Origin: a virus
Taxonomy: Duplodnaviria; Caudoviricetes
DNA length: 64,000 bases
IMG/VR virus record: IMGVR_UViG_3300031993_000010
Coordinates: 64,001 to 128,000 of that record
Reading direction: 5' to 3' (one strand)
Position 1 is the stretch's first letter, and each line of letters begins with the position of its first letter. The notes beneath the pieces are model-generated. The model saw only the letters and a program-made list of their open reading frames with translations. It did not search any database and was not told where the DNA came from. The position numbers were made by a program, and so were the translations under genes. Below are positions 1,596 through 55,922 of the stretch, piece by piece.

Positions 1596-3734
1596 ATGAA
1601 CGAATTGATTAATGAAACCGAAGAAATTAAACAAAAAAAACTGTTACTAAAAAACGCTGAACAAATCCTTAAACAGGAATTTGTCGGTATTGACAACGTG
1701 ATAGAGGGAACCCTCCTTAACATGCGCCCCTGGTTTCTATATCCTGAGTTACAGGACAAACCGCTTGTCATTTCGCTTTTTGGTATGACAGGTTCGGGAA
1801 AAACATCACTTGTCAGGCGCATTCTCCAATTGCTCGATATTGAGACCGATATGGTCTATTTCAACTTTGCCGAAATTGGTGAAATGAAATCGTGGGAGAT
1901 TGAGGATACCCTTGATGAACAGATTTCAAGTGAGAAAACCAACAGGGTTTTTGTCTACGACGAATTTCAATATGCTGCAACCCTCGACTCCCACGGTGAG
2001 GAGAAGGACAACAAGAGTGGCTTGAAACCGTTTTGGGAACTTCTCGACACGGGTATCATACACAAAAGGACATCACGCTTTGATATACAGGTTGTCAAAC
2101 GCATGATAGACTATATGACAAGAATTGACAGGCGCCACCCAATTGAATTGAAGAATGGTGTTTGGCAGAATGCTATAGATTGTCTGAATGGAGTGTCTTT
2201 GTATGACATGGGTCGTTTTCAAACATATTTTGAACTCAACCTTCCGCAAGACATAAAAGATGAAATGAATGGTCATCGGAACGGTGAAGGGGAATTCCCA
2301 TGCATAGACGATTATAACGAATCATCCGCAAAACCCACCAAGTGTAATGTGGTTGACGATGGACCGTTCTTCATCAGGGACAGTTACATGAACCGTATCC
2401 ATGAACTGTACGAGAGAATCAAACCCGGTATTGACAGAATTGACCTCCACAACGAGATGACGAAAATGAATTTCCCTGAGTTGTGTTCCTTCCTGCAGGG
2501 TATAATCAAGGAATCCGAAAAGGGGTATGACATGAACTTCAACGATTCAATCGTCTTTGTTCTTGCAAACATAGACGAAGCCTATCAGATAAGTTTCAAC
2601 GTGAACCCCGATATGCTTCCCGACCAATTCCACAAGATAACCGAAAAACTCACGATTGTCGATATCAAGGAGGCATTGAGACACAGGTTCAGAAATGAAC
2701 AGATTGCACGTCTCGGAAACCTGTTCATGATTTATCCATCCTTTTCGGAGGAATCCTTCAGAAAAATCATCGACCTGCAACTCAACAAGTACAGAAACGA
2801 TGTCCTTGAGAAGTGGGGTTTGAACATTGAGTTCGACCAAACAATAAAAGACTTTATATATACCGACTCTGTCTTTCCGACACACGGCACACGCCCAATT
2901 ATATCGGCAGTCCATGAAATCGTGAAGACAAAGTTGCCTTTAATTGTCGACAACCTCAATGAGAACGATATACACTGTGCTGAAAAGATTGTGTATTCAT
3001 ATGAAGACAATTCGGTGGTGATAAAGACATACTGTGGCGGTGAAGAGGTTAACTCGTTTCCAACAAAGACCATTTCCCGTTTGAACAGTCACAGGGGGCT
3101 GAAAGGTAAGAACGAGCAGACCTTGATTGCGACGCACGAAAGCGGGCATTTTATAATGTATGTCAAACTTTTCGGCAGGTTGCCTGAAAAAGTGTGTTCA
3201 TCCACCGTATCGAAAGACGCTGCAGGCTTTATGTTGGAGGATAGCGATGAAAGCGACAAACTCCACACCAAGGAAGACCTTCTTAACGTGATAAAGGTTT
3301 GTTTGGGTGGTTATGTAGCCGAAGGACTTGTATTCGGTGAGAACAAACGCTCGTCGGGTGCGTCACAAGACTTGAAGTCGGCTACAATAACAGCGTCGGA
3401 TATTGTAAGGAAATTCGGAATGACGGATTACGCCTTTGTTTCAACATATCTTGTCACAAGCGAAGCTACATCAGCGGGGTCTTATGTTCGTGAAGACAGT
3501 CAAATCCATTATAATGAGCTTATAAAGAACATTATCAAAGACTGTTTGGATGACGTGAAACACACCCTCATGGATGAGGATTGGAAAAAGATGTTCAAGG
3601 GTTCAGCAAAATATCTGTCAGAGAACGTCAATATGCCAAAGGAAAAGATGGCTGAACTCTACGACTTGGTACCTGATGAAAAGAAAGTTGTATACAATGA
3701 GAACTACTATAGCGAAAAACTTGAGTCATTCTGA
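1596..3734 (+). CDS. AAA+ ATPase fused to M41 (FtsH-like) peptidase domain
   Basis: GMTGSGKT Walker A, FVYDE Walker B, HESGH zinc motif, LGGYVAE..SSGASQDL. Confidence 0.75.
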   Translation: MNELINETEEIKQKKLLLKNAEQILKQEFVGIDNVIEGTLLNMRPWFLYPELQDKPLVISLFGMTGSGKTSLVRRILQLLDIETDMVYFNFAEIGEMKSWEIEDTLDEQISSEKTNRVFVYDEFQYAATLDSHGEEKDNKSGLKPFWELLDTGIIHKRTSRFDIQVVKRMIDYMTRIDRRHPIELKNGVWQNAIDCLNGVSLYDMGRFQTYFELNLPQDIKDEMNGHRNGEGEFPCIDDYNESSAKPTKCNVVDDGPFFIRDSYMNRIHELYERIKPGIDRIDLHNEMTKMNFPELCSFLQGIIKESEKGYDMNFNDSIVFVLANIDEAYQISFNVNPDMLPDQFHKITEKLTIVDIKEALRHRFRNEQIARLGNLFMIYPSFSEESFRKIIDLQLNKYRNDVLEKWGLNIEFDQTIKDFIYTDSVFPTHGTRPIISAVHEIVKTKLPLIVDNLNENDIHCAEKIVYSYEDNSVVIKTYCGGEEVNSFPTKTISRLNSHRGLKGKNEQTLIATHESGHFIMYVKLFGRLPEKVCSSTVSKDAAGFMLEDSDESDKLHTKEDLLNVIKVCLGGYVAEGLVFGENKRSSGASQDLKSATITASDIVRKFGMTDYAFVSTYLVTSEATSAGSYVREDSQIHYNELIKNIIKDCLDDVKHTLMDEDWKKMFKGSAKYLSENVNMPKEKMAELYDLVPDEKKVVYNENYYSEKLESF

Positions 3735-5907: not shown

Positions 5908-7035
5908 ATGCCTAACAAAGACTACTATCAAATTTTGGGGTTAACCGAGGAAGACAAAAAACTTCAGGGTGACGAGTTTGCGAAAAAATTGAAGACAAAC
6001 TATAGAAATTTATGTAAGCAATTTCATCCTGATAAATTTGCCAATGCAAGCGAAGAAGAGAGAAAGAAAGCCGAGGAGAAGTTCAAGGAAATTTCGGAGG
6101 CTTACGATGTACTCTCCAACCCTGAGAAGAAAGCAAGATATGAACAGACGGGTTCTTACGACGGGTTCTCGTTTGAGGGATTCGGTAATACAGGTATGGC
6201 TGACATAGACGAGATGTTGAACCGTTTCCGTCACGGTTTTAATCCTTTTGGAGGTGGCTTCAGTGGTTTTGGTGGAGGTTTTCAAAGAACTGTACAGAAA
6301 CCTAACCCCATGAAGATAAAACTCTCCATTACAGTGGAGGAGGCGTACAGCAAAGCCACGAAACGTGTAAGATACAAACGTTTCAAACCCTGCAGTTCCT
6401 GTGAGGGTAAGGGTTATGGCGAGAACGGCAAGACCGAGGTTTGCCCTGTGTGTGGCGGCACGGGTAATGAGATTAAGACAAGTACCAACGGGTGGATGAC
6501 ACGGCAGAAGATAAGCCCCTGTCATAACTGCCACGGCAGCGGTCAGATATTGTCCAATCCGTGCCACAAGTGTAATGGAAGCGGTCGTGTGGTTGATATG
6601 GAGGAGTTATCCATTGACATACCCGACGGTGCAAATAACGGCACATATATTGTAGTGGAGGGCAAGGGTCATTGTGCGGAGAGAAATCCTTCAGTATACG
6701 GTGATTTGCTCGTGTTTTTCGAAATCAACGGTAATGGCAAGTATGAGATAACCGAAAACGGTGGTTTGGTGGTGAAGACCAAGATTCCGATTTTGGACTG
6801 TATAACAGGTTGTGACACAGACATAACTTTACCTAACAATGAGAATGTTAAAGTTAAGATACCAATGGGGTCACAGACAGGAGACTATGTTGAGGTGAGG
6901 GGCAAGGGAATGCCGATACCGAACGGACGTGGCACCTTGTATGTTGTGGTTGAACAGACGTTTCCAAAATCACTGTCCTCTACAGAGGAAAAGACAATAA
7001 AGGAACTTAAAAACAGTAAAAACTTTAAAAAATAA
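5908..7035 (+). CDS. dnaJ: chaperone DnaJ
   Basis: HPD J-domain, G/F-rich linker, four CxxCxGxG repeats. Confidence 0.96.
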   Translation: MPNKDYYQILGLTEEDKKLQGDEFAKKLKTNYRNLCKQFHPDKFANASEEERKKAEEKFKEISEAYDVLSNPEKKARYEQTGSYDGFSFEGFGNTGMADIDEMLNRFRHGFNPFGGGFSGFGGGFQRTVQKPNPMKIKLSITVEEAYSKATKRVRYKRFKPCSSCEGKGYGENGKTEVCPVCGGTGNEIKTSTNGWMTRQKISPCHNCHGSGQILSNPCHKCNGSGRVVDMEELSIDIPDGANNGTYIVVEGKGHCAERNPSVYGDLLVFFEINGNGKYEITENGGLVVKTKIPILDCITGCDTDITLPNNENVKVKIPMGSQTGDYVEVRGKGMPIPNGRGTLYVVVEQTFPKSLSSTEEKTIKELKNSKNFKK

Positions 7036-11600: not shown

Positions 11601-12133
11601 GCACAAATTGCATAAGGGTTGTGGAATATCGTACCCGTCAAGGTGAATGGGTGAGATGCAACAAGACAAATGACAATTTCCACGGTTTCGACACGTGGAG
11701 AAACGAGGAATATAGCGACCGTGGGTTTCCACAAGGTTGTACCATTGACAAATCGGAGTACACCGATATGCTCGACGGCATGAAAAGGGATTTGTCTTGG
11801 GGTAAGTCTTACATCACATTGGAAGAACTTGAGAAATGGATAGAAAAAGAGTGTAACAATGCTGCCGATTTCCTTTACCGTGAAATGACAAATAGCCAAT
11901 TCGCCTACATAATCAAAAAAATGGAAGGAAAGGAAACTGTTACTGAGAACGAAATCATTACCAACGAGGGTTTTAGGGAAACTTTTGAGGAATGCCTTGG
12001 TTGGTTCAGTGGATTGCAGTCGGAATACATAGCAGCATATACGGCGGCTCAGATGAAATATAAAGACGGCAATGATGGTGATGCATATTGTCTTCCACTT
12101 GACAGGGTAAGAATAGTTTATTGGTTTGAATAG
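11597..12133 (+). CDS. hypothetical protein
   Basis: ORF in operon with ATGA overlap. Confidence 0.7.
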   Translation: MSTNCIRVVEYRTRQGEWVRCNKTNDNFHGFDTWRNEEYSDRGFPQGCTIDKSEYTDMLDGMKRDLSWGKSYITLEELEKWIEKECNNAADFLYREMTNSQFAYIIKKMEGKETVTENEIITNEGFRETFEECLGWFSGLQSEYIAAYTAAQMKYKDGNDGDAYCLPLDRVRIVYWFE

Positions 12134-26550: not shown

Positions 26551-27975
26551 ATGACAATAACAGAATATAAGGAAATAATAACATATCTAAAAGGTTGCAT
26601 ACAGGGTAGCGACTTTGAAAACCACACGTTTGTTGTGGGAGGTGCGGTACGTGATTTTTTAATGTACAACCCTATCAAGGATATTGACCTTGTGATTGAC
26701 ATTCCTGACGGAGGTTTGAAGTTCGCCGAATGGATGAAGGAACAGGGATATACGGTCGGAAGTGTGGTTACATACCCGACATACGGCACGGCAATGTTCA
26801 AACTTGCTGCATACCCCGACATTGAATTGGAATGTGTGCAGACGAGGGGAGAACAGTACCACGACAAGAACAGCAGAAACCCTGAAACCTGTTTCGCAAC
26901 CATCAAGGAAGATGCTTTCAGGAGAGACTTGACAATCAATGCAGTGTACCACAATGTAAGCACAGGTGAAATTCTTGACATCACAGGCAAAAGCCTTGAC
27001 GACATCAAGAATCACGTGATACGGTGCGCAAACGACAACCCAGACGTGGTGTTTATGGACGACCCTTTGAGAAATATGAGGGTGTGCAGGTTTTCAGCCC
27101 GTTATGGTTGGAAGATAGAGAAAGAGACGTACATGTCCATGATACGTAATGTTGCCCGTCTCGAGATAATCACCAAGGAACGCATACAAGACGAACTGAT
27201 GAAAATACTCACCTGTAAGAATCCTGTGATGGGACTTGAGGAATTGGAGGATATGGGTGCGTTGGAGTATGTGATTCCAGAACTTGAGGAAACGGTTGGA
27301 ATGGAACAGAACAAATACCATTTTGGCGATGTGTGGGAACACACTCTCAGGGTTGTGGAGAACGCAAGCAAGATGGCGGTTGAGAACGATTATGACAAAC
27401 AAGTGCTGATGATGGCAGCGTTACTGCATGACATTGGAAAGATAAAGACCCGTTCCGAGAAAGACGGAAAAGTACATTTCCTGTTCCACGAAGTCGAGGG
27501 GGCGAAACTTGCCGAGGGGATAATGAGAAGGCTGAAATTCAGCAACGATTTCATTTCCAAGGTTTCATTCCTTGTAAGGGAACACATGAGATTCAAAAGT
27601 TTTGGTGATGAAGTACCGTCTGACAAGGCATTGAGGAAATTCCAGTATCTCTGCAAGGACAAGGAACTTTTCAAACTCTGTGTCTATCTGATACATGCCG
27701 ACAATACAGCACATGCCGAGGAATACTGTCTACCAAACCAATGCAGGAAAATACTCGAGCGTTCGGAGGAACTTGAGAAATACGGTGAATCCATGTTCGG
27801 GTACAAACTACCTATAAACGGATTTGACATCATGAAAATCAGGGGAATAGACAGTGGACCTGATATAAAGAAGTGTCAGGATTATCTGATAAAGTTGGCA
27901 TACAACGGAGTCGGCAAACTTGACAAGACAAGGTGCATACAGATGGTAAAAAGTTTCAACCCGCAAAAAAGTTAG
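26551..27975 (+). CDS. cca: CCA tRNA nucleotidyltransferase with HD domain
   Basis: VGGAVRD, DIDL, RRDLTINA, DDPLR, ERI..EL; HT...LLHDIGK. Confidence 0.9.
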   Translation: MTITEYKEIITYLKGCIQGSDFENHTFVVGGAVRDFLMYNPIKDIDLVIDIPDGGLKFAEWMKEQGYTVGSVVTYPTYGTAMFKLAAYPDIELECVQTRGEQYHDKNSRNPETCFATIKEDAFRRDLTINAVYHNVSTGEILDITGKSLDDIKNHVIRCANDNPDVVFMDDPLRNMRVCRFSARYGWKIEKETYMSMIRNVARLEIITKERIQDELMKILTCKNPVMGLEELEDMGALEYVIPELEETVGMEQNKYHFGDVWEHTLRVVENASKMAVENDYDKQVLMMAALLHDIGKIKTRSEKDGKVHFLFHEVEGAKLAEGIMRRLKFSNDFISKVSFLVREHMRFKSFGDEVPSDKALRKFQYLCKDKELFKLCVYLIHADNTAHAEEYCLPNQCRKILERSEELEKYGESMFGYKLPINGFDIMKIRGIDSGPDIKKCQDYLIKLAYNGVGKLDKTRCIQMVKSFNPQKS

Positions 27976-31593: not shown

Positions 31594-32202
31594 ATGAAGA
31601 CAAAACAGGTATTAAAAATATTAAAAGTAACAAGACCGACATTGACCAAATACGTCAAAAACGGACGTATAAAGGTCAAAGAGATGCCAAACGGTTTCTA
31701 TGAATACAATGACGATGACGTGTTCAAAGCCGCAAATATTTCGCCGTCTCGCAAATGTGTCATTTATGCACGTGTCTCAACACAGAAACAGAAACGGGAT
31801 TTACAAAACCAGATTGACGTGATACGCGAATATGCAAACAAAAACGGTTATACGGTCGAGAGAGTATATTCTGACGTCGCAAGCGGATTAAACTATGACC
31901 GTGGTGAGTTTCAGGAAATGCTCAACGAAATATTGGCGTACAAAATCAAAACAGTCATTGTTTCAAACAAAGACAGGCTAACAAGAGTTTCGTTTGGCAT
32001 GTGGCAACAACTGTTCGGACAATTCTCATGTGATTTGGTCGTTGCAAACAACGATGATGCCGAGAACGAAAACAGCGAGAATGAGATTTTCGAGGATATC
32101 ATTTCGTTGCTTCATTGTTTCGCCATGCGGATGTATTCGGCAAGGAGGAAAAAGAAAATAACACTTATTGAGGAAGACATGAAAAATGAGATTGGTTTAT
32201 AA
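31594..32202 (+). CDS. tnpA: IS607 serine recombinase TnpA
   Basis: N-terminal HTH; YARVSTQKQ, DVASG, KDRLTR. Confidence 0.92.
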   Translation: MKTKQVLKILKVTRPTLTKYVKNGRIKVKEMPNGFYEYNDDDVFKAANISPSRKCVIYARVSTQKQKRDLQNQIDVIREYANKNGYTVERVYSDVASGLNYDRGEFQEMLNEILAYKIKTVIVSNKDRLTRVSFGMWQQLFGQFSCDLVVANNDDAENENSENEIFEDIISLLHCFAMRMYSARRKKKITLIEEDMKNEIGL

Positions 32203-33403
32203 GTTTGACATAAAACACAACGAAAAACTATATGAATTGTGTAAGGTTTCAAAAAACCTTTACAACCAGGCGTTGTATATTGTCAGACACGAACTGAAGG
32301 AAAACAACAAATGGTTGGGGTACGGGCAACTTAACACAATCCTTCAGGACACATTCAATCTCGATGGCGAAATTAACTACAGACTGCTAAAAGCACAAGT
32401 CGCACAACAGTGCTTGAGGGCATTGGACAAGAACATTAAATCTTATGTCAAATCAATCAAGGATTTCTCTAAGAATCCCTCAAAATACAAAGGACGTCCG
32501 AAACTTCCAAAGTATAAGAAAGAAGCAAACCAACTCATATACACCAACCAATGCTCAACAATAAAAGACGGTTACATACATCTCTCAAAAGAACTGAAGA
32601 TACGCATCCCGCAGTACGGGAAGTACGGGAAAGAATTGGTGGATTTCCAACAGATAAGGGTGGCACCAAAGATGGATAAGACATTTACGGTTGAGATTGT
32701 ATACCTATCCGAAAGGAATACCGATACAGACTTGGATTACAAGCAGTACGCTTCCATCGACTTGGGAGTAGACAATCTCGCAACAATGATATTGTACGGT
32801 GAAGAACCGATGCTTTTCAACGGAAGACAACTGAAAGCGAAAAACCAATATTTCAATAAAATAACATCAGAACTAAAAAGTAAGTTAACCAATGGACAAA
32901 AAACGAGCAAAAGAATTAAGCGGCTCTACATAAAGCGTGACAACCAAGTAACCGACATGTTTCACAAACTGTCCAGGAGAATAGTCAATCTGTTAATAGA
33001 ACACAAGGTAGGCAACCTCGTTGTAGGTTACAATAAGGGATGGAAAGACTCCATAAACATCGGTAAACGAAACAACCAGACGTTTGTTGGCATACCATAT
33101 GCAAAACTGATATATTTCCTGAGGTATAAATGTGAGATGTGTGGGATAAACTTGGTGGTTAACGAAGAGAGTTACACGTCCAAGTGCGACGCATTGGCAA
33201 TGGAACCTATTGGGAAACATGAGGAATACAAAGGAAAACGTGTCAAACGCGGGATATTTCAATCCTCGACAGGGAAGTTGGTCAATGCGGATGTCAACGG
33301 GGCGTTGAACATAATGAGAAAAGCAGTCGGTGATTCCGAGTGTGTCACAAGGATAATCGATAGTGGTCGGCTGTTCCGACCGGTAAGAATAAACATTTTA
33401 TAA
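32186..33403 (+). CDS. tnpB: RNA-guided nuclease TnpB
   Basis: SKNLYN, IDLGVDNL, EESYTSK, NADVNGALNI. Confidence 0.92.
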   Translation: MRLVYKFDIKHNEKLYELCKVSKNLYNQALYIVRHELKENNKWLGYGQLNTILQDTFNLDGEINYRLLKAQVAQQCLRALDKNIKSYVKSIKDFSKNPSKYKGRPKLPKYKKEANQLIYTNQCSTIKDGYIHLSKELKIRIPQYGKYGKELVDFQQIRVAPKMDKTFTVEIVYLSERNTDTDLDYKQYASIDLGVDNLATMILYGEEPMLFNGRQLKAKNQYFNKITSELKSKLTNGQKTSKRIKRLYIKRDNQVTDMFHKLSRRIVNLLIEHKVGNLVVGYNKGWKDSINIGKRNNQTFVGIPYAKLIYFLRYKCEMCGINLVVNEESYTSKCDALAMEPIGKHEEYKGKRVKRGIFQSSTGKLVNADVNGALNIMRKAVGDSECVTRIIDSGRLFRPVRINIL

Positions 33404-35279: not shown

Positions 35280-35292
35280 ACAAACATTGTCT

Positions 35293-36471
35293 ATGAAAAT
35301 TACTGACATTATAAGTGATAACTTTACCCCCAAGTGGGATGTAATAGAAAGCATCGACGAGTTCAAAAGACTGTCGGAGACTCCACAATCGTTAAAATTT
35401 CATAAGGAGGGAAATGTGTATGAGCATACAAAATTAGTGTGTTCAAGAATGGCCGACATAATAAACGGCAAAGTTTCCTTTATAAGAAACGAGGAACCGT
35501 CCAATGAACAGAAAACAGCGTTGATGGCTGCTGCGGTGTGTCACGACCTTGGCAAGGCAACCTCAACCAAGTGGAACGAGGAACTGCAGGAGTGGAAAAC
35601 CAAGAACCACGGCGCCGAGGGGGAACGGATAACCCGTCTCCTTTTCTTCGACGAGCCGAACATCCAACTGAGGGAGAAGGTATGCTATATGGTACGACGC
35701 CATATGACACTCCATCATATATTTGATGTGGAGGAGAAAATCAACAGCCGCATGATGTCACTGATGGGCGAACAGGCTTCAGTATACGAGATGGTCTGTC
35801 TGAACTATGCGGACTCGTTGGGTTCGATAAACGACCAGAACACACCTGAGGAAGTGATGTCCAGACTCAACAGGGTTTTGGCACTCGAGTTCTCCATAAA
35901 CAAAACCCATGAAGACTTGTATGAAAGCCATTACGGTTTCAGACGCACCCTGACCGACAACTCACCGAACGTCTATGTCATGATGGGTGTTGCGGGTAGC
36001 GGCAAGTCAACATACGCACAGCGTTTCCTTCCGAATGCAATGCAACTTTCCCGTGACGTTATCCGTGAGGAACTTGGATATGCAAAGGAGGGTGAGAAGG
36101 TGAAGTGCACCAAGGAACAGGAAAGCAATGTGACAGAGGTTTTCAACAAGAAGGCTCTTAATGCCTTGGCAAAGGGACAGAACATCATTATAGACAACAT
36201 GAACCTTACCAAACGCTACAGGGACATGTTCCACCGTGAGTATGGCAGTTTCAACCCGAGATACACATACATCTATGTGGAGGCCCCCACAATCAACACC
36301 AACATAACAAGACGTGACGGGCAAATCCCTGAAAAGGAGATAGAGAGAATGGTGAACTCCATAGATTTCCCTGAAGGTCATGAGTATGACAGCCTTCGTC
36401 TTGTCAAGCAGACAGAATTGGGTGGGGAGATTGTTGCAACACCGTTTGATGTGAAAAATGTGAATATATAA
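35293..36471 (+). CDS. HD phosphohydrolase fused to polynucleotide-kinase-like P-loop domain
   Basis: HKEGNVYEHT, CHDLGK; GVAGSGKST, SRDVIR, IIDNMN. Confidence 0.85.
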   Translation: MKITDIISDNFTPKWDVIESIDEFKRLSETPQSLKFHKEGNVYEHTKLVCSRMADIINGKVSFIRNEEPSNEQKTALMAAAVCHDLGKATSTKWNEELQEWKTKNHGAEGERITRLLFFDEPNIQLREKVCYMVRRHMTLHHIFDVEEKINSRMMSLMGEQASVYEMVCLNYADSLGSINDQNTPEEVMSRLNRVLALEFSINKTHEDLYESHYGFRRTLTDNSPNVYVMMGVAGSGKSTYAQRFLPNAMQLSRDVIREELGYAKEGEKVKCTKEQESNVTEVFNKKALNALAKGQNIIIDNMNLTKRYRDMFHREYGSFNPRYTYIYVEAPTINTNITRRDGQIPEKEIERMVNSIDFPEGHEYDSLRLVKQTELGGEIVATPFDVKNVNI

Positions 36472-39167: not shown

Positions 39168-40751
39168 ATGGAAAAGAAAAAGACATTTTTGACCGCAAGT
39201 GCGGACATGAAAGAGGAATATTGCGCCAAGGTGGTGCGTATAGGCAAGATGAACCCCATCGAGGGCGCAGACCGTCTTGTGCAGACATTGCTTGACGGTT
39301 TCAGCATCGTTGTCGGCAAGGGGCAGTTTACCGAGGGTGAGCCTGTAATCTACTGTCTTAACGAGACTCAGATTAACAAGGACTTCCTTTCCGCAAATAA
39401 TCAGTTTGAGTTCGGTGAACGCCATCTTAACGCCAATGCCGAGATGGTCAACAACCTCATCAACGAGGGCAACGTGGAGGAAGCGAAACGCAACGTGGGC
39501 TTCTTCAACAAGCACGGCCGTGTGAAACTTATCAGACTGAAGGGCTGCCCTTCATACGGATGTGTGTTCAAGAAGGAAAGCCTTGAGAAATGGATTCCGA
39601 GACTGAAGGACATCAACCTTGAGGAATACCTGAAAGTCGACGAGAACGGCTACGAGCACCCCTTCAATTTCGATACCGTTGACGGCAAGCTGTTCGCCGA
39701 GGCTTACGTTCCGCCCATGCCACAAGAGAATCACCGCAGTGGTGACAGGCTGTATCGCAAGAGAATGAAAAGGATAGAGCGTTTCGATAGAATGGTTCCA
39801 GGACAATTTTGTCTACATTACGACACAAACCAATTACAGAGCAACATTTGGAGAATCAATCCGAACGATGTTGTAACCGTCACTGTTAAGGAACACGGCA
39901 CCTCGGGCATTTTTGGAAACGTTCTGACACGCATACCTGTCAAACTCTCAATGTTTGCCCGATACAACAACAAGTGTATCAACCGTTCCATCAAGATGAT
40001 AAAAAGACAGGAAAAGCGTTTCTATTGGCAGCGTGAGGCGGTCAATCGCAAGGTGGCAAGCCTTAAGAAGGGGTTGGTTGATGAGTTCAAGGTGGACTAC
40101 GGCAACATCTACTCAAGCCGTGGTGTCATCAAGAACCAATACATCAACAAGAATGTCACACCTGGGTTCTACGGCACCGACATATGGGGTGAGATAAACG
40201 ACATCATCAAACCGCACCTCCTGAAGGGAATGACCGTGTACGGCGAAATCTGCGGATACCTCACCAATTCCGACAAGATGGTTCAGAAGAACTATGATTA
40301 CGGATGTAAGCGTGGTGAAAATTTCCTTATGCCTTACCGTGTAACCTTTACCGACGAGAACGGCGACAAGACCGAGTGGGATGTCAGCGAGGTCTACGGT
40401 TGGACTGTCAACCTTATCAAGGAGCATCCCGAACTTGAGGGAAAGGTCAAACCGATTAACATTCTCTATCACGGAACACTCAGCAACTTGTATCCCGACA
40501 TTGACATCAGGGAACATTGGCATGAGAATGTGCTTGAACTCATGAAAGGCGACAAGGAACACTTCGGAATGGAGGAAAATGAACCCCTCTGCAACACAAA
40601 GGTTCCAAGAGAGGGCATCGTCATAAGAATTGACGGTGACAAGAAAGCCGAAGCATTCAAGTTAAAGTGTAGCAAGTTCATGGAGAAGGAGTCAAGACAG
40701 GTGGATGCAGGTGAAGTTGACATAGAAATGGCAGATGCTTACGGAAAGTAG
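39168..40751 (+). CDS. ATP-dependent RNA ligase (DRB0094-like)
   Basis: PIEGADRL N-terminus; KEHGTS (motif I), YGEICG, REGIVIR, FKLK. Confidence 0.8.
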   Translation: MEKKKTFLTASADMKEEYCAKVVRIGKMNPIEGADRLVQTLLDGFSIVVGKGQFTEGEPVIYCLNETQINKDFLSANNQFEFGERHLNANAEMVNNLINEGNVEEAKRNVGFFNKHGRVKLIRLKGCPSYGCVFKKESLEKWIPRLKDINLEEYLKVDENGYEHPFNFDTVDGKLFAEAYVPPMPQENHRSGDRLYRKRMKRIERFDRMVPGQFCLHYDTNQLQSNIWRINPNDVVTVTVKEHGTSGIFGNVLTRIPVKLSMFARYNNKCINRSIKMIKRQEKRFYWQREAVNRKVASLKKGLVDEFKVDYGNIYSSRGVIKNQYINKNVTPGFYGTDIWGEINDIIKPHLLKGMTVYGEICGYLTNSDKMVQKNYDYGCKRGENFLMPYRVTFTDENGDKTEWDVSEVYGWTVNLIKEHPELEGKVKPINILYHGTLSNLYPDIDIREHWHENVLELMKGDKEHFGMEENEPLCNTKVPREGIVIRIDGDKKAEAFKLKCSKFMEKESRQVDAGEVDIEMADAYGK

Positions 40752-43181: not shown

Positions 43182-43244
43182 CCCCAACATATTTTCCCCC
43201 TTTTTGACAGCCTGACGTTCCCCAAGACATCAGGCATTTTTTTT
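43153..43244 (+). terminator. terminator/antiterminator pair
   Basis: CGTCAGGCTG (43153-62) pairs CAGCCTGACG (43208-17); competing stem 43210-43235 followed by A-T8. Confidence 0.75.
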
Positions 43245-43257
43245 GGGATTTTTAAGG

Positions 43258-43305
43258 AAAAAAATTTGGCGGTTAGAAAAAAAAGTCTTACCTTTGCAAA
43301 CGTAA
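43258..43305 (+). promoter_or_regulatory. class A promoter
   Basis: AAAATTTGG ... TACCTTTG CAAACGTAA. Confidence 0.7.
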
Positions 43306-43350
43306 ACGAGAGAACTTTGACATATTAGGCAATCATACAAATAGGAAAAC

Positions 43351-44340: not shown

Positions 44341-45087
44341 ATGAAAATGATAAATTTGGTGAAGAACAAAATAAGGAAAGCCGTCAGGGAAGTGTTGAAC
44401 GAGAATGTTGTCGGATACCCGATGCACTTCAGGACAATATACGATGACATAGGAGACGGACTCCTGATAAACGAGGGTCTGATAAAAACCTATCCATTGT
44501 CGTATGTACAGAAATACTTTGACAGACGATATGTGTTCGACATACGTGAGAAATACTTCAACGACAACGATTGGAAGGTCATCCTCGTACTGCCGTCAAA
44601 ATCCGATAAAGCGCAGGAGATTACCGATGTCTTGAACAGGTTTGGATATTATCTTGGCTACAAGGAAGAGAATGACAGGGGGCTTTGCCTTCAGTTCGAG
44701 CCTAAATTCCAGAACAAGTTCACAGGACAGCAAATGAAAGAAGTCGGGTGCAAATACCTGATACATGTTTCCCCGATGTACAATCAGGAAAAGATAATGG
44801 CAAACGGGTTGTGCCCCACAAGTAGAAACGGCGAGTTCAGTTATCCGAACAGGATATACTTATTCCTTGATACTGTGTCGGACAGGGAGTTGGAAAGCAT
44901 GGTAAGCAGACTTTCCGCCTCGAACAAGAGCAAGGGAAACGACGGCAGGTATTGCGTCTTCAACGTAAGCCTTGAAGGTCTTGAGGAACACACGTTTAAC
45001 CTTGACTTCAACATGGACAACGCTGTCTTCACCGAGGAAAACATCCCCCCGACAAACCTGCAATTGGTGAAAATCCTCAATGTTTAA
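44341..45087 (+). CDS. ART/KptA(Tpt1)-like domain protein, paralog of 56043..56828
   Basis: HVSP...I...GL.P...YPNRIYL...FTEENIPP.NL. Confidence 0.55.
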   Translation: MKMINLVKNKIRKAVREVLNENVVGYPMHFRTIYDDIGDGLLINEGLIKTYPLSYVQKYFDRRYVFDIREKYFNDNDWKVILVLPSKSDKAQEITDVLNRFGYYLGYKEENDRGLCLQFEPKFQNKFTGQQMKEVGCKYLIHVSPMYNQEKIMANGLCPTSRNGEFSYPNRIYLFLDTVSDRELESMVSRLSASNKSKGNDGRYCVFNVSLEGLEEHTFNLDFNMDNAVFTEENIPPTNLQLVKILNV

Positions 45088-45099
45088 CACTTTTTAACA

Positions 45100-45147
45100 A
45101 AAAAGATTTGGCCAATTCAAAAAATGGTAGTATCTTTGCAAACGTAA
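45100..45147 (+). promoter_or_regulatory. class A promoter
   Basis: AAAAAGATTTGG ... TATCTTTG CAAACGTAA. Confidence 0.7.
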
Positions 45148-45269
45148 ACAAAACAGAGATAGAAAAAAATTCCGAGAAAGTTGAAATTTGCAAGAAAAAA
45201 TAGTATATTTGCATTGTCTGATTGGTTCATGATAGATGACATCCCGCCATTCAGATAACAGTGGCGGAA

Positions 45270-45847: not shown

Positions 45848-45913
45848 GGAAGCCGTACAGCAAACTTTTCAAGCAACAAACTTTTAATTTGTACACGCTA
45901 ACCTTGGCTTCTG
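45848..45913 (+). ncRNA. ACAGCAA-motif RNA, free copy 2
   Basis: GGAAGCC-GTACAGCAA...GGCTTCTG. Confidence 0.7.
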
Positions 45914-46287: not shown

Positions 46288-46416
46288 CGGAGGATAGTTT
46301 AACGGCAAAACGGAGGCTTGCATCAAAATGGTTTTCTGCATACGGAATACCAACAGCAACAGCAACCAATACGCAACAGGGTGCCTCAGTTACAGGTTCG
46401 AATCCTGTTCTTCCGA
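46288..46416 (+). ncRNA. tRNA scaffold carrying a permuted ACAGCAA motif in the anticodon arm
   Basis: Acceptor CGGAGGA/TCTTCCG, D and T arms; insert GGTTTTCTG-catac-GGAATACC-AACAGCAA. Confidence 0.7.
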
Positions 46417-46554
46417 CAAAGGCCGAAGCCCACACGCACATGCTTAATGAGTCTCAACGTGCGTTCCGAAAGGAATAGGACCATAGAGTTGGAAAGACCT
46501 GTGCACGGGTGTGAAAACGTTTCCAATAGACGGGGAAGTGGGGTCGGTTGCTTT

Positions 46555-46662: not shown

Positions 46663-46718
46663 GGAAGACGTACAGCAAACACAAAAGTTTTTATGGAAAA
46701 GACGAAAATTGTCTTCTG
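46663..46718 (+). ncRNA. ACAGCAA-motif RNA, free copy 3
   Basis: GGAAGAC-GTACAGCAA...GTCTTCTG. Confidence 0.7.
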
Positions 46719-46724
46719 AAAAAT

Positions 46725-48879: not shown

Positions 48880-49014
48880 GTGGACTGTGACGGGGAATGG
48901 GTAAACCCGCGCCGTAAAATAGAGGAACGACTGGAAGTGGTCGGTAAAAGTCGGACGGTGGACCGAAAGGTTTTGACACGTCAGTCACTGTGGGTTCGAG
49001 TCCCATCGGTGCGC
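48880..49014 (+). ncRNA. tRNA-like RNA with expanded anticodon/variable region
   Basis: Leu/Ser-type D arm, T arm GTGGG-TTCGAGT-CCCAT. Confidence 0.5.
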
Positions 49015-49102
49015 GGATATGCACTTTTTTTACGGAAAAATTGTAACTTTTGAAAAATACGTTATATTTATAAAAGAATAAGGTAACAGAAGAAATAAGA
49101 AA

Positions 49103-49240: not shown

Positions 49241-49319
49241 ACACATTTTTCACTCTCATTAATATGCGTGGTTCCTTGTCAGACACAGGGAACCACAATT
49301 TTTTTAAGGGAAATTAAGA

Positions 49320-49367
49320 AAAAAGATTTGGTCGGAAGGAAAAAAGTTGTTACCTTTGCAAACGTAA
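49320..49367 (+). promoter_or_regulatory. class A promoter
   Basis: AAAAAGATTTGG ... TACCTTTG CAAACGTAA. Confidence 0.7.
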
Positions 49368-49376
49368 AAGATACAG

Positions 49377-49772: not shown

Positions 49773-49845
49773 CTCCCTGTAGTTCAGTGGATAGTAACGA
49801 GAGATTCCTAATCTCTAAACCGAGGTTCGAGTCCTCGTGGGGAGA
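49773..49845 (+). tRNA. tRNA-Arg(CCT)
   Basis: AGAGA-TTCCTAA-TCTCT. Confidence 0.88.
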
Positions 49846-49854
49846 CAAAAAGCA

Positions 49855-49982: not shown

Positions 49983-50306
49983 AATTCCAATTGTTGATAT
50001 ACGTTTGAACGTATGTAAGACGAGCGTTCGAATCGCTCCATCTCCACAAAATTACAAAGTGCCCAGGGCACGAAAGCATTGCAGATAATGATGCTAATCC
50101 TGAACCCAAATCGAAAAGGGGTCGTGTTGCAAGTCATACTTTGTAGGATAAGGATAACATTGGGGATGTCTTGGTTTCGATTGCATGTCAAGTAGGATGT
50201 AAGGAGATTGGGATTAGTTGTTTTAAACGGCAACACAAACTATCGTTATGCAATGGCTGCCTGATAGGGCACCCATGTGCGAGTTGGCCACGAACTAAAT
50301 CGTGGC
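49983..50306 (+). ncRNA. ssrA: circularly permuted (two-piece) tmRNA
   Basis: T arm + CATCTCC-A (50022-46) precede GGGGATG..TTCGA (50162); G3:U70; tag GNTNYRYAMAA* at 50229-64; outer ends approximate. Confidence 0.85.
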
Positions 50307-50313
50307 AAATTTT

Positions 50314-50400
50314 GGACGCGTGGTGTAATTGGTTCAGCATACGGCACTGTCACTGCCGAGGGAGCGTAAGCCATTGCGGGTTCGAGTCCCGTCGTGTCCG
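50314..50400 (+). tRNA. tRNA-Asp(GTC) with long variable arm
   Basis: CGGCA-CTGTCAC-TGCCG. Confidence 0.85.
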
Positions 50401-50496
50401 CTAAAATATAAGTAACGGTTCAACTTTTTATTAGTTTGCTTGTAAACACTTGTTTTACTTTTTATTCCACAATATATGATATAAAAAGAAGCGACT

Positions 50497-51594
50497 ATGG
50501 AGTATAACGAAGACAATTTTAGAAATGCAAAACCATTTGATTTATTTGAATTCACATGTGAAAATTGTGGATGTACTTTTACGCAAAACAAAAGATACAT
50601 TGTAAAATGTGGGGGTAAAATACCACGTTATTGTTCAAGTAAATGCCGAGGGGAAGCAAAGAAGACGTTAATTAAAGTGCATTGTGCGGAATGTGGAAAA
50701 GAAAAGTTTGTTCGGAAACACGAATACGAAACAAGTAAGACAGGTAATTTCTTTTGTTCTGAATTACATGCTGCGATGTTTAATAATAAAGGACGTAAGC
50801 ATAAAAATGAAACGAAAAGATTATTAAGTGAAAAAGAATTTAATATTTTAAATAAAAATGTTGAATACATAGAAAATGATACAGTTTGTCCAATATGTGG
50901 TAATAGAAAAACTTCTATGTCCGGTGTTTGTAAAAAGTGTTCAGACAGGGCAAATTATGAAGAATATGAAAACAAAACATTGGGTGAAGTGCTTGGTGAA
51001 AACACTACGTATACAACTAAGTTGTGTTCCACAATAAGAAAACACGCAAGAAGAAAGATGGAGGAAGGGTCAGTTGAAAAGGTATGTGCTTATTGCGAGA
51101 ACCATGAATATGATGAAATATTAGAAGTACACCACATAAAAGGTATACTAACATTTAACCGTGAAACAAAAATAAAGGAAATAAATGACTACAAGAACCT
51201 TTTATGGTTATGCCCAAATCACCATCAAATGTTGGAAAAAGGGTTAATAAGTATAGAAGATATTGACTTGGAAAAGCATCAAAGTGTAGAAGAATCGGAT
51301 GGGTTCTCCCACAAAGAAGTTAAGGACATTATCAAGTCTAATATAGAAAAAAGAATATCTGCAGGTTATTCATACAAAACCCCAAAAAAGGAACAATTGA
51401 CAAAAGAAGAGGTTGCATTTAATCAGCGTAGATGTGAATGGCCTTCAAAAGAAGAATTGTTGGGTTTAATAAAAACAATTTCATTTGAAGCAATTGGAAG
51501 GCGGTATGGGGTTACGGGAAACACGGTGAAGAAATGGTGTAAACGTTATGGATTGCCAAGTAGAAAATGTGATATAAAAGAGATAACAGAATAA
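50497..51594 (+). CDS. HNH endonuclease with zinc fingers
   Basis: CAYC...LEVHHI...NDYKNLLWLCPNHH; C-terminal HTH; AT-rich. Confidence 0.82.
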   Translation: MEYNEDNFRNAKPFDLFEFTCENCGCTFTQNKRYIVKCGGKIPRYCSSKCRGEAKKTLIKVHCAECGKEKFVRKHEYETSKTGNFFCSELHAAMFNNKGRKHKNETKRLLSEKEFNILNKNVEYIENDTVCPICGNRKTSMSGVCKKCSDRANYEEYENKTLGEVLGENTTYTTKLCSTIRKHARRKMEEGSVEKVCAYCENHEYDEILEVHHIKGILTFNRETKIKEINDYKNLLWLCPNHHQMLEKGLISIEDIDLEKHQSVEESDGFSHKEVKDIIKSNIEKRISAGYSYKTPKKEQLTKEEVAFNQRRCEWPSKEELLGLIKTISFEAIGRRYGVTGNTVKKWCKRYGLPSRKCDIKEITE

Positions 51595-52183: not shown

Positions 52184-52855
52184 ATGGATATGGAAATTTG
52201 GGAAACAACCGACATGAAGTCTGTTCGTCCCGACTTGAAGTTCAAGATAATGCGTACAGATTTCGCCAAACTTTTCAAGAACATGGGCTACTCGTTCTTT
52301 GAGAACGGGCTGTACAACCTGAACATCATAGGCATACGGTCTGACAACAAGAACAAGGTGACCAACAAGTACGACGACGTGCTTGTGCTGATATACAACA
52401 ACGGCAACGGAAAGCAGAAGATAATGTACCCCATCACGACCGAGCCTGGTCTCTATTATATGACAACTGAACTCGGCAATGCGAAGGGAACTGCGATACT
52501 CGTTCCCGGGCAGTACAAGGGCTGTTGGGCGATTGGAAAGCATAACGGAAAGTACAAGGCGTTGGTTCAGGTGAAGCCCGTCAAGGTCTACAGGGACAAG
52601 AACAAGGACAAGGTCTACGACATGAACCCCAAGACTGTCGACAATGGCGTATTCGGCATAAACATACACCGAAGCAACGAGAATTGGACACGTGACACTG
52701 TCGACATGTACAGTGCAGGATGTCAGGTGTTCGCAAACCCGAACTATTTCAAGTCTTTCATCTCAATCTGTGAGAAGCAGGCGGGGCTGTACGGAAACTC
52801 GTTCACCTACACCCTCATCAACGAGAAGGACTTGGATTTCGGTCAGACAGTTTAA
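52184..52855 (+). CDS. putative peptidoglycan-active enzyme (L,D-transpeptidase-like)
   Basis: GINIHR...SAGCQV His/Cys motif; TTEPG, YRDKNKD. Confidence 0.55.
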   Translation: MDMEIWETTDMKSVRPDLKFKIMRTDFAKLFKNMGYSFFENGLYNLNIIGIRSDNKNKVTNKYDDVLVLIYNNGNGKQKIMYPITTEPGLYYMTTELGNAKGTAILVPGQYKGCWAIGKHNGKYKALVQVKPVKVYRDKNKDKVYDMNPKTVDNGVFGINIHRSNENWTRDTVDMYSAGCQVFANPNYFKSFISICEKQAGLYGNSFTYTLINEKDLDFGQTV

Positions 52856-53013: not shown

Positions 53014-53175
53014 CGAGTAGTAGCCCAGTTGGTCTAAGGCACTGCATTTGGTTAGGGAGATGCTACCTCCTATTGAGAATAAAGCGATTTCGCAAATGGT
53101 TGGGTACAACCCTGGGGTTCGATTCCCTTGTGCGAAACGATGCAGAAATCGTGTGTTCGAATCACACCTACTCGA
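53014..53175 (+). tRNA. tRNA-Pro(TGG) interrupted by an 87-nt insert
   Basis: Removing 53052-53138 gives CTGCA-TTTGGGA-TGCAG; C1:G72, A73. Confidence 0.75.
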
Positions 53176-53336
53176 CTGATTATCAGATAGTTTCAAATAA
53201 AAACCCTTTCGTAAAGGAAGGTGCCGCCTGGTTGGCCAATCAGGTCTGTGGTTGGAGGTAAAGCATGTTAACGGCTCATGACCGTTTCTGTTCCACTATG
53301 AGTGACGTGATGCGCAGCGTAAAAAGCCTCCTAAAT

Positions 53337-54789: not shown

Positions 54790-54845
54790 GGAAGTCGTAC
54801 AGCAAAACAACAAGAGTATAGTGGAATTACTTCAATTGACTTCTG
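54790..54845 (+). ncRNA. ACAGCAA-motif RNA, free copy 4
   Basis: GGAAGTC-GTACAGCAA...GACTTCTG. Confidence 0.7.
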
Positions 54846-54929: not shown

Positions 54930-55050
54930 CGGGAAATAGTTTAATGGTAGAACGGGGGTAGCGAAAAAGATGGTTTTCTGTAGATGGAATACCAACAGCA
55001 ACCAAATGCGTCCCAAACCCTAAGTGGAGGTTCGAGTCCTCCTTTCCTGT
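54930..55050 (+). ncRNA. tRNA scaffold carrying a permuted ACAGCAA motif
   Basis: Acceptor CGGGAAA/TTTCCTG; insert GGTTTTCTG-tagat-GGAATACC-AACAGCAA. Confidence 0.7.
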
Positions 55051-55058
55051 CTAAATAT

Positions 55059-55181
55059 GGTCGGAGTCGTCTAGTGGATAGGACACGTAAAACAAAAGAC
55101 TTCTGCTATGGAAATCGTACAGCAACCAATTTGAAATGCTTTCTGGTAGCCGTAACACAGGTTCGAATCCTGTCTCCGACC
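55059..55181 (+). ncRNA. tRNA scaffold carrying a permuted ACAGCAA motif
   Basis: Acceptor (G)GTCGGAG/CTCCGAC(C); insert GACTTCTG-ctat-GGAAATC-GTACAGCAA. Confidence 0.7.
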
Positions 55182-55416
55182 CACAATGGAAGTACGAACC
55201 ACTGAGTATAAGCGGGGCAATTCGCAATGCCGTACTAGTAAAAGGCACGGTGGAGTAGTCGGGAGTAGAGTATTCCCTCAGCCCGCTGAAAGGTGTTGGT
55301 GACCGTGAGGTGCCATAAGGTGCAACGCAACACAGGGTAAAACCGCAAGCGGTAATGCAATCGACGTAAAGCCGTCGTTTCCTGAGTCCGTGGCTCGTCA
55401 ACTTACTTCCTTTTTT

Positions 55417-55499: not shown

Positions 55500-55922
55500 A
55501 TGATTATGAGTAACAAAGTTAGAAATGATTGTATTTGCATAAATTGTGGTAAAGTTTTTTATCCACAGAAAAATACAACAGGTAAATATTGCAGCAACAA
55601 ATGTCAACAGGAATATCAATCTCATCAAAAATATCTCAATTATTTGGCCGACCCTTCAAAGTATATGAAGGGATGTAATATGAAATGGATAAAGAAACAC
55701 ATACTGCAAGAACAGGGATATAAATGCGCTATATGTAATATGCCTAATAGTTGGAATGGTAAGGTATTGATATTCATATTAGACCATATTGATGGACATG
55801 CCCATAATAACAATAGGTCAAACCTTAGGCTTATATGTCCTAATTGCGATTCTCAATTAGACACTTATAAAAGCAAAAACAAGAAAAGCGATAGGATTTA
55901 TTACCACTTTCATCATAGATAA
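55500..55922 (+). CDS. HNH endonuclease
   Basis: CAIC...LDHIDG...NN..SNLRLICPNC. Confidence 0.88.
   Translation: MIMSNKVRNDCICINCGKVFYPQKNTTGKYCSNKCQQEYQSHQKYLNYLADPSKYMKGCNMKWIKKHILQEQGYKCAICNMPNSWNGKVLIFILDHIDGHAHNNNRSNLRLICPNCDSQLDTYKSKNKKSDRIYYHFHHR

Follow-up and report, generated by a model that had tools for sequence, protein, structure and literature searches.

An 87-nt insert containing a tRNA-like unit in the anticodon loop of a jumbo-phage tRNA-Pro gene

The interrupted tRNA-Pro gene and its setting

The stretch of DNA analysed here (the window, 64 000 nt) comprises bases 64001–128000 of a 227-kb IMG/VR virus record with an estimated completeness of 62%. The phage has a GC content of ~42% and long open frames under the standard code; identity with the Jug phages was considered and rejected, their GC content being 27–30% versus 42% here. 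A tRNA island at 43.3–56.9 kb carries ~30 tRNA genes and a permuted tmRNA on one strand. The tmRNA (49989–50264) is of the two-piece type, scores 65 bits against RF04321, which is above the gathering score, and is kept in the related contigs L046 and L047. The presence of a tmRNA in a phage points to a bacterial host. An encoded CCA is absent from 27 of the 28 island tRNA genes, which fits the presence of a gene of the CCA-adding enzyme family in the window (Table 1).

Several other elements were noted in this region. A tRNA-like element of ~110 nt (48908–49017), called by neither ARAGORN nor Rfam, displays a canonical T arm (48991–49007) and a 6-bp terminal stem (CCGCGC/GCGCGG). Three copies of a 74-nt repeat (43236–43309, 45078–45151 and 49298–49371) end in TTTGCAAACGTAAA, lie 5–120 nt upstream of tRNA clusters and may be phage promoters. 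The places of tRNA-Arg(CCU) and tRNA-Asp (49773–49846 and 50314–50401) are taken by different, non-orthologous genes in L046 (2392–2480 and 3686–3757), a contig ~93% identical to the window; the island is a mosaic between relatives.

Neither default ARAGORN nor Rfam makes a call at 53014–53176. With introns allowed, ARAGORN finds a tRNA-Pro(UGG) gene there with an 87-nt insert (53052–53138) placed after raw position 38, corresponding to standard position 36 (junction tttgg-Intron-gatgc); once the insert is removed the cloverleaf is regular, with C1:G72 and A73. This intron mode makes many chimeric false calls in tRNA arrays and the calls kept were those without overlap to normal tRNAs. An earlier interpretation made from the letters of the window (the sequence-only reading) had proposed that deletion of 53052–53138 restores a canonical Pro anticodon arm and that the insert lies directly 3′ of the anticodon. 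Both proposals are borne out, the first by the ARAGORN call together with an uninterrupted allele in relatives and the second by the junction after base 36. The further suggestion that no other Pro gene of the island could give a canonical loop holds among the called genes, but an interrupted gene at 46288–46417 is also readable as Pro(GGG), with C1:G72, A73 and a possible loop TTGGGGT.

Table 1. Features of the interrupted tRNA-Pro gene and of candidate processing enzymes (window coordinates)
Feature	Positions	Strand	Basis
CCA-adding enzyme/poly(A) polymerase family protein	26551–27975	+	PF01743, PF12627, PF01966
HD phosphohydrolase fused to P-loop polynucleotide kinase (RNA end healing)	35287–36471	+	PF01966, PF13671, phrog_505
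RNA ligase, candidate sealing enzyme	39168–40751	+	phrog_968 'RNA ligase', E 1.1e-35, full length; PF21189 OB domain
5′ exon of tRNA-Pro(UGG): acceptor 5′ strand, D arm, anticodon stem 5′ strand, loop bases 32–36 (TTTGG, anticodon TGG)	53014–53051	+	ARAGORN -i
Intron-like insert, 87 nt	53052–53138	+	Absent from L046/L047; present in L050
Hairpin 1: 5-bp stem (53055–53059 with 53067–53071, one G-U pair), 7-nt loop ATGCTAC	53055–53071	+	MFE folds
A-rich single-stranded linker, 16 nt, starts ATT	53072–53087	+	Unpaired in MFE folds
Mini-tRNA ('top half'), 51 nt	53088–53138	+	Fold; weak Rfam alignments; T-loop word enrichment
3′ exon of tRNA-Pro: G37, A38, anticodon stem 3′ strand, variable loop, T arm, acceptor 3′ strand, A73; no encoded CCA	53139–53175	+	ARAGORN; uninterrupted allele

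Contigs L046 and L047, both ~93% identical to the window, carry an uninterrupted 76-nt tRNA-Pro(tgg) gene that equals the two exons of the window save for A→G at tRNA position 9 and scores 62.1 bits against Rfam tRNA. The boundaries of the insert are exact, because the alignment of these natural intron-less alleles jumps straight from 53051 to 53139, and they cannot slide, since the flanking bases differ at each junction. An assembly artefact is excluded because L050, an independent assembly (source SRR17023477), has the identical insert.

Anatomy of the insert and related elements

The insert begins with TTA (53052–53054), followed in order by a small hairpin, an A-rich linker and a tRNA-like unit that we term the mini-tRNA. 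A first hairpin had been described in the sequence-only reading as TAGGGAG paired with CTCCTA; a hairpin is present, but that pairing needs a bulged G and the stem is best read as 5 bp. The mini tRNA-like unit described in the same reading is recovered by folding: its acceptor stem consists of seven perfect base pairs (53088–53094 with 53131–53137), a second hairpin of 5 bp with a tetraloop occupies 53098–53111, and a T arm with the canonical loop TTCGATT occupies 53114–53128. The T stem is separated from the acceptor stem by two unpaired bases or a T–T mismatch, and the insert ends with the discriminator C at 53138. By chance, 0.1 occurrences of the T-loop word GGTTCGANTCC would be expected in the window; there are 19, all of them inside the tRNA island.

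A search of the insert against Rfam with cmscan at E≤10 gave no family, the weak tRNA-like alignments being to tRNA-Sec and mascRNA-like entries (E 3–5). The folding energy did not differ significantly from that of shuffled sequences (insert, z = -0.85; mini-tRNA, z = -1.8), ORFs overlapping the insert on either strand had no PHROG match and no promoter or terminator was found within it. A permuted tRNA in the circularized insert was considered and discarded, as ARAGORN at normal thresholds finds nothing, and so was the idea that the insert contains a copy of the anticodon arm or made a target-site duplication, for which the best local match is no better than in shuffles (p = 0.72). With its 87 nt and no Rfam match, the insert is too small for a ribozyme, in agreement with the earlier view that it is far shorter than typical group I/II introns.

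Several known systems share some of these properties. Group I introns of bacterial and phage tRNAs, such as tRNA-Leu(UAA) and tRNA-fMet (PMC3984707), are likewise mobile, occupy the anticodon loop of bacterial-type tRNAs and show presence/absence polymorphism; unlike these introns, with a core of ~200 nt or more, the insert has only 87 nt, no Intron_gpI match at E≤10 and no homing-endonuclease ORF. In mascRNA (MALAT1, RF01684) and in mitochondrial tRNA punctuation an internal tRNA-like fold sets the RNase P and RNase Z cuts, as it would here, but the flanks are not re-joined as they would be in an intron, and the mascRNA match of the insert reaches 15 bits against a threshold of 42.5. The mini-tRNA nevertheless has the features of an RNase P/Z substrate, namely an acceptor stem stacked on a T arm, a canonical T loop, a discriminator and no CCA, and its cleavage is predicted.

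The insert may also be set beside the non-autonomous PATE-like elements of the IS200/IS605 group, which insert seamlessly, have subterminal hairpins and are moved by a TnpA. Around the insert there is no target duplication, the empty site is seamless and a hairpin stands close to each end; a tRNA origin is favoured by the T-loop consensus. A TnpB-like gene (OrfB_IS605 plus a Cas12f1-like TNB domain; 32186–33403) was seen inside an RNA-repair cluster upstream of the tRNA island.

Three more tRNA genes of the window have anticodon-loop inserts: 46288–46417 (58 nt), 54930–55051 (50 nt) and 55060–55182 (40 nt), named by ARAGORN as Arg(gcg), Gly(ccc) and Ser(tga), respectively. These three inserts share a different motif, a hairpin followed by ACAGCAAC (three pattern matches versus zero expected). 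Free-standing, circularly permuted copies of the same motif were found at 45848–45913, 46663–46719 and 54790–54845. They have the form GGAAGxCGTACAGCAAA, 30–45 nt, Gx′CTTCTG, in which x and x′ covary, and the second and third (46663 and 54790) end 5–7 nt before the next tRNA.

Similar arrangements occur in other contigs. L022 (IMGVR_UViG_3300029305_002190; 5944–6215 and 11814–11939, minus strand) has a tRNA island with two 57-nt ACAGCAA-type inserts and a tRNA-Met that carries a bare 50-nt mini-tRNA after base 33; the acceptor stem of this mini-tRNA has 7 bp, and a T arm and a discriminator C are present. The tRNA-Met insert resembles that of the window in being tRNA-shaped, ORF-less and in the anticodon loop, with the 3′ junction at the end of the tRNA-like unit; it differs in lacking the extra 36-nt 5′ module of the window insert, and the two mini-tRNAs are not alignable by MAFFT. 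The occurrence of both insert types together in the window island and in L022 suggests common handling, be it tolerance or removal. ARAGORN in intron mode also gave inserts of 27–32 nt consisting of a hairpin and a short tail in the anticodon loops of tRNA-Asn (L013, 6320–6425), tRNA-Gln (L031, 12266–12370) and tRNA-Leu (L027, 8651–8748).

Distribution among relatives and likeness to Lak megaphage introns

Relatives were collected from the neighbouring ORF (52184–52855) by way of its 90% protein cluster and the corresponding Logan assembly contigs. Six contigs reach the Pro locus (L046, L047, L050, L052, L053 and L054). Four are uninterrupted, L050 has the insert and L054 ends just before the gene; the uninterrupted tRNA-Pro(UGG) of L052 and L053 is a different gene with the same acceptor stem as that of the window. 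The insert is therefore dispensable, being missing from the tRNA-Pro of four of the six relatives' contigs. L050 has the same tRNA-Pro gene as the window and an insert identical at 87 of 87 positions, including all 51 of the mini-tRNA, so that the comparison of relatives proposed in the sequence-only reading yields one identical copy and its absence from L046 and L047. The two genomes differ at 39 of 710 positions in the adjacent ORF, nine of 158 in the spacer, one of 76 in the exons and none in the insert. At the flank divergence of ~5.5%, the insert would be expected to differ at ~4.9 positions (P ~ 0.008); the unconserved, decaying insert that had been raised as a possibility is not what is seen.

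Judged from these alignments, the insert is a polymorphic mobile element, either constrained or recently spread; recent spread, instead of selection, could be the reason for its perfect identity with L050. In L050, tRNA-Pro is directly followed by a 283-residue DUF559/MTES_1575 endonuclease-like gene (region 2596–3475), beyond which the last 30 nt of tRNA-Pro are repeated; such a duplication is what the insertion of a homing-endonuclease gene would be expected to leave. A PDDEXK_5 gene flanks tRNA-Pro on its upstream side in the same contig.

The insert is single-copy in the 227-kb record. Exact patterns (the 5′ exon end and two insert segments) had no match in viral_contigs or metagenome_contigs, and a blastn search with the insert against 50 697 phage genomes gave chance matches only. 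A 20-mer from the T arm of the 3′ exon matched 35 viral contigs, which proved to be unrelated tRNAs sharing this T arm, among them uninterrupted tRNA-Pro(UGG) genes with the loop TTTGGGA. A covariance model of the mini-tRNA run over 454 kb returned the mini-tRNA itself, the L050 copy and ordinary tRNA 3′ halves only.

Phage tRNAs with short inserts that contain no ribozyme have figured in the literature, without explanation, since 2019, when the tRNA introns of Lak megaphages were called enigmatic (Devoto et al., 2019, Nat Microbiol, PMC6784885; Fig. 4 and Table S6). These introns are found in tRNA-Phe (79 nt), tRNA-Tyr (93 nt), tRNA-Thr (114 nt) and tRNA-Gly (87 nt, the same length as the window insert) and are listed with 'no hit in rfam' (Table S6, PMC6784885). 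They are identical across cohorts, an alignment with and without them is shown and one of them 'itself may encode a tRNA' (PMC6784885). The paper gives neither anatomy nor mechanism. A 2026 survey notes that jumbo-phage tRNA introns 'could encode another tRNA', and no published mechanism for such introns was found in the literature.

We compared the window insert with Table S6 by eye. Read in this way, all four Lak introns consist of (T)TA or ATA, a 4–5-bp hairpin, an A-rich linker, a tRNA-like unit and a discriminator C. The linkers are ~10–12 nt in length and two of them start with ATT; in the tRNA-like units, the acceptor stem is 7–8 bp long and the T loop is of the TTCGAxT type. If a purine is assumed at base 37, the 5′ junction falls, again by eye, after base 36 in Phe, Tyr and Thr and is ambiguous between 36 and 37 in Gly, all four thus being readable as starting after base 36. 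The discriminator C is immediately followed by the 3′ junction in Phe and Thr and, in one of its two equivalent placements, in Gly; Tyr has one extra base.

The window insert obeys both of these junction rules and matches the Lak introns in the order of its modules, with the small hairpin at the same place as in all four by eye. Like them, it is an ORF-less insert within the 79–114 nt range in the anticodon loop of a phage tRNA, has no Rfam family, is identical in diverged genomes and has alleles with and without it. The two systems differ in that Lak phages have 26% GC and use code 15, as opposed to ~42% GC and the standard code here; in the interrupted tRNA, which is Pro in the window and Phe, Tyr, Thr or Gly in Lak; and in the tRNA-like unit, a 51-nt top half here and a full cloverleaf in Lak Thr. 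Sequence likeness is confined to short shared words seen by eye, and a word pattern from the Lak Phe intron had no match in viral_contigs. By our reading, the insert is a further member of the published 'enigmatic' Lak-type tRNA introns. The presence of the Lak design in a second phage lineage argues for a conserved function at the RNA level, and the argument that we find strongest is that five tRNAs from two unrelated phage groups appear to be interrupted at the same structural position with a tRNA-like end flush with the junction.

A possible route of removal and its alternatives

tRNA precursors that lack CCA undergo maturation by RNase Z, whose cut falls immediately 3′ of the discriminator. 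Because 27 of the 28 island tRNAs lack CCA, such a cut followed by CCA addition is expected here, and the predicted RNase Z site after the discriminator C coincides with the 3′ junction (53138|53139). The predicted RNase P site (53087|53088) lies 36 nt downstream of the 5′ junction (53051|53052). The proposal of the sequence-only reading that the insert is spliced by tRNA-processing nucleases thus fits at its 3′ end and does not fit at its 5′ end: RNase P and RNase Z alone would give no ligatable 5′ exon, since a 36-nt tail would remain. We know of no enzyme that accounts for a cut at 53051|53052.

The phage kinase and ligase invoked in the same reading are available upstream of the insert (Table 1). 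The RNA ligase, the HD-kinase, a metallophosphoesterase and RlaP lie 12–29 kb upstream of the insert; a sequence comparison gave no PDB relative for the ligase. An ATP-dependent RNA ligase requires a 3′-OH and a 5′-phosphate, the ends that RNase P and RNase Z leave. T4 Pnkp and Rnl1 offer a parallel, as both phages encode a kinase/phosphatase and an RNA ligase that could seal a break in the anticodon loop, but the T4 enzymes answer attack by a host nuclease, not an encoded insert, and the ligase of the window, which belongs to phrog_968 and has its OB domain at the N terminus, is of another family. A candidate phage RNase Z was dismissed as noise (a single match, E 0.005, in an ORF without a Pfam domain).

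A protein-dependent intron, removed via its embedded mini-tRNA, is the interpretation that we put forward, with a confidence poised midway between acceptance and doubt. We infer each cleavage and the ligation as follows. Host tRNA end-processing enzymes would recognize the embedded mini-tRNA; RNase Z would cut after the discriminator C, exactly at the 3′ splice site, leaving a 5′-phosphate on G37, and RNase P would cut at the 5′ end of the mini-tRNA. The 36-nt tail of TTA, hairpin and A-rich linker would then be taken off the 5′ exon by a further nuclease, perhaps guided by the conserved hairpin, and the phage RNA ligase would join the tRNA halves, which base pairing in the acceptor and anticodon stems would keep in contact. 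Hairpin 1, which stands beside the 5′ junction, is a candidate signal for the 5′ cut. Cleavage by an anticodon nuclease and a decoy role, both raised in the sequence-only reading, drew no support from anything in the analysis.

The insert might instead be selfish mobile DNA that is never spliced, so that tRNA-Pro is inactivated, the phage uses the tRNA-Pro of the host and the element spreads by co-conversion beside homing endonucleases. We regard this as possible but somewhat unlikely. Presence/absence polymorphism, with most related contigs lacking the insert, and an identical sequence in diverged genomes, as expected of recent spread, are both in keeping with it, as are the mosaic nature of the locus and an island full of homing-endonuclease genes (HNH, 50497–51594; EndoVII-like, 55500–55922; PDDEXK_5 and DUF559 flanking the gene in L050). 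It would also dispense with a splicing mechanism, none being known, and with the need to explain the 5′ site. However, the exons are intact (one difference in 76), the tRNA-like unit would be cut by RNase P and RNase Z anyway, and the recurrence of the 36|37 position with a flush tRNA-like end in five tRNAs (by eye for Lak) is hard to account for without constraint at the RNA level.

Release of the mini-tRNA might itself be the point, as a decoy or small RNA liberated by RNase P and RNase Z from a tRNA-Pro gene that serves mainly as a scaffold for transcription and processing, re-ligated or not. The unit is well formed, with its 7-bp acceptor stem and canonical T loop, it is fully conserved in L050 and its nearest working analogy is to mascRNA-type signals, although the Rfam match of 15 bits is weak. 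We nevertheless consider a useful product improbable: the unit is single-copy in the genome and not essential, being absent from close relatives, and such a role leaves the conserved 5′ hairpin and linker unexplained. A G3:U70 pair lets an alanine minihelix be charged, whereas the third acceptor pair here is U:A and no other charging signal was recognized by eye. An intron of the archaeal/eukaryal bulge–helix–bulge type, cut by a splicing endonuclease and joined by RtcB, would agree with the short length and the location in the anticodon loop, but is very improbable indeed. Its canonical position is 37|38, not 36|37, no 3-4-3 bulge–helix–bulge could be drawn by hand around the junctions, neither EndA (tRNA_int_endo, PF01974) nor RtcB (PF01139) is present in the 62%-complete phage record, and the tmRNA points to a bacterial host.

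To our knowledge, bacteria and their viruses are thought to have self-splicing tRNA introns only. If the insert is removed as a protein-dependent intron, one may tentatively envisage that tRNA splicing has a third route, carried out by proteins only, in bacteria that large phages infect. It would use an RNase Z 3′ site, a hairpin-marked 5′ site at 36|37 and a phage ligase, and such inserts might then have spread between tRNA genes because only that loop position is spliceable.

The locus is a clean natural test case, offering tRNA-Pro with and without the insert in near-identical phages, and it combines a compact 87-nt element whose 3′ end lies at a predicted RNase Z site with nearby phage genes for a ligase, a kinase and a CCA enzyme. 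By our reading, it extends the Lak design of hairpin, linker, tRNA-like unit and 36|37 junction to a different, standard-code lineage of jumbo phages. Should the splicing proposed here prove true, the insert would represent a new pathway of tRNA maturation in the bacterial world, as well as a ready-made, protein-processed RNA cassette.
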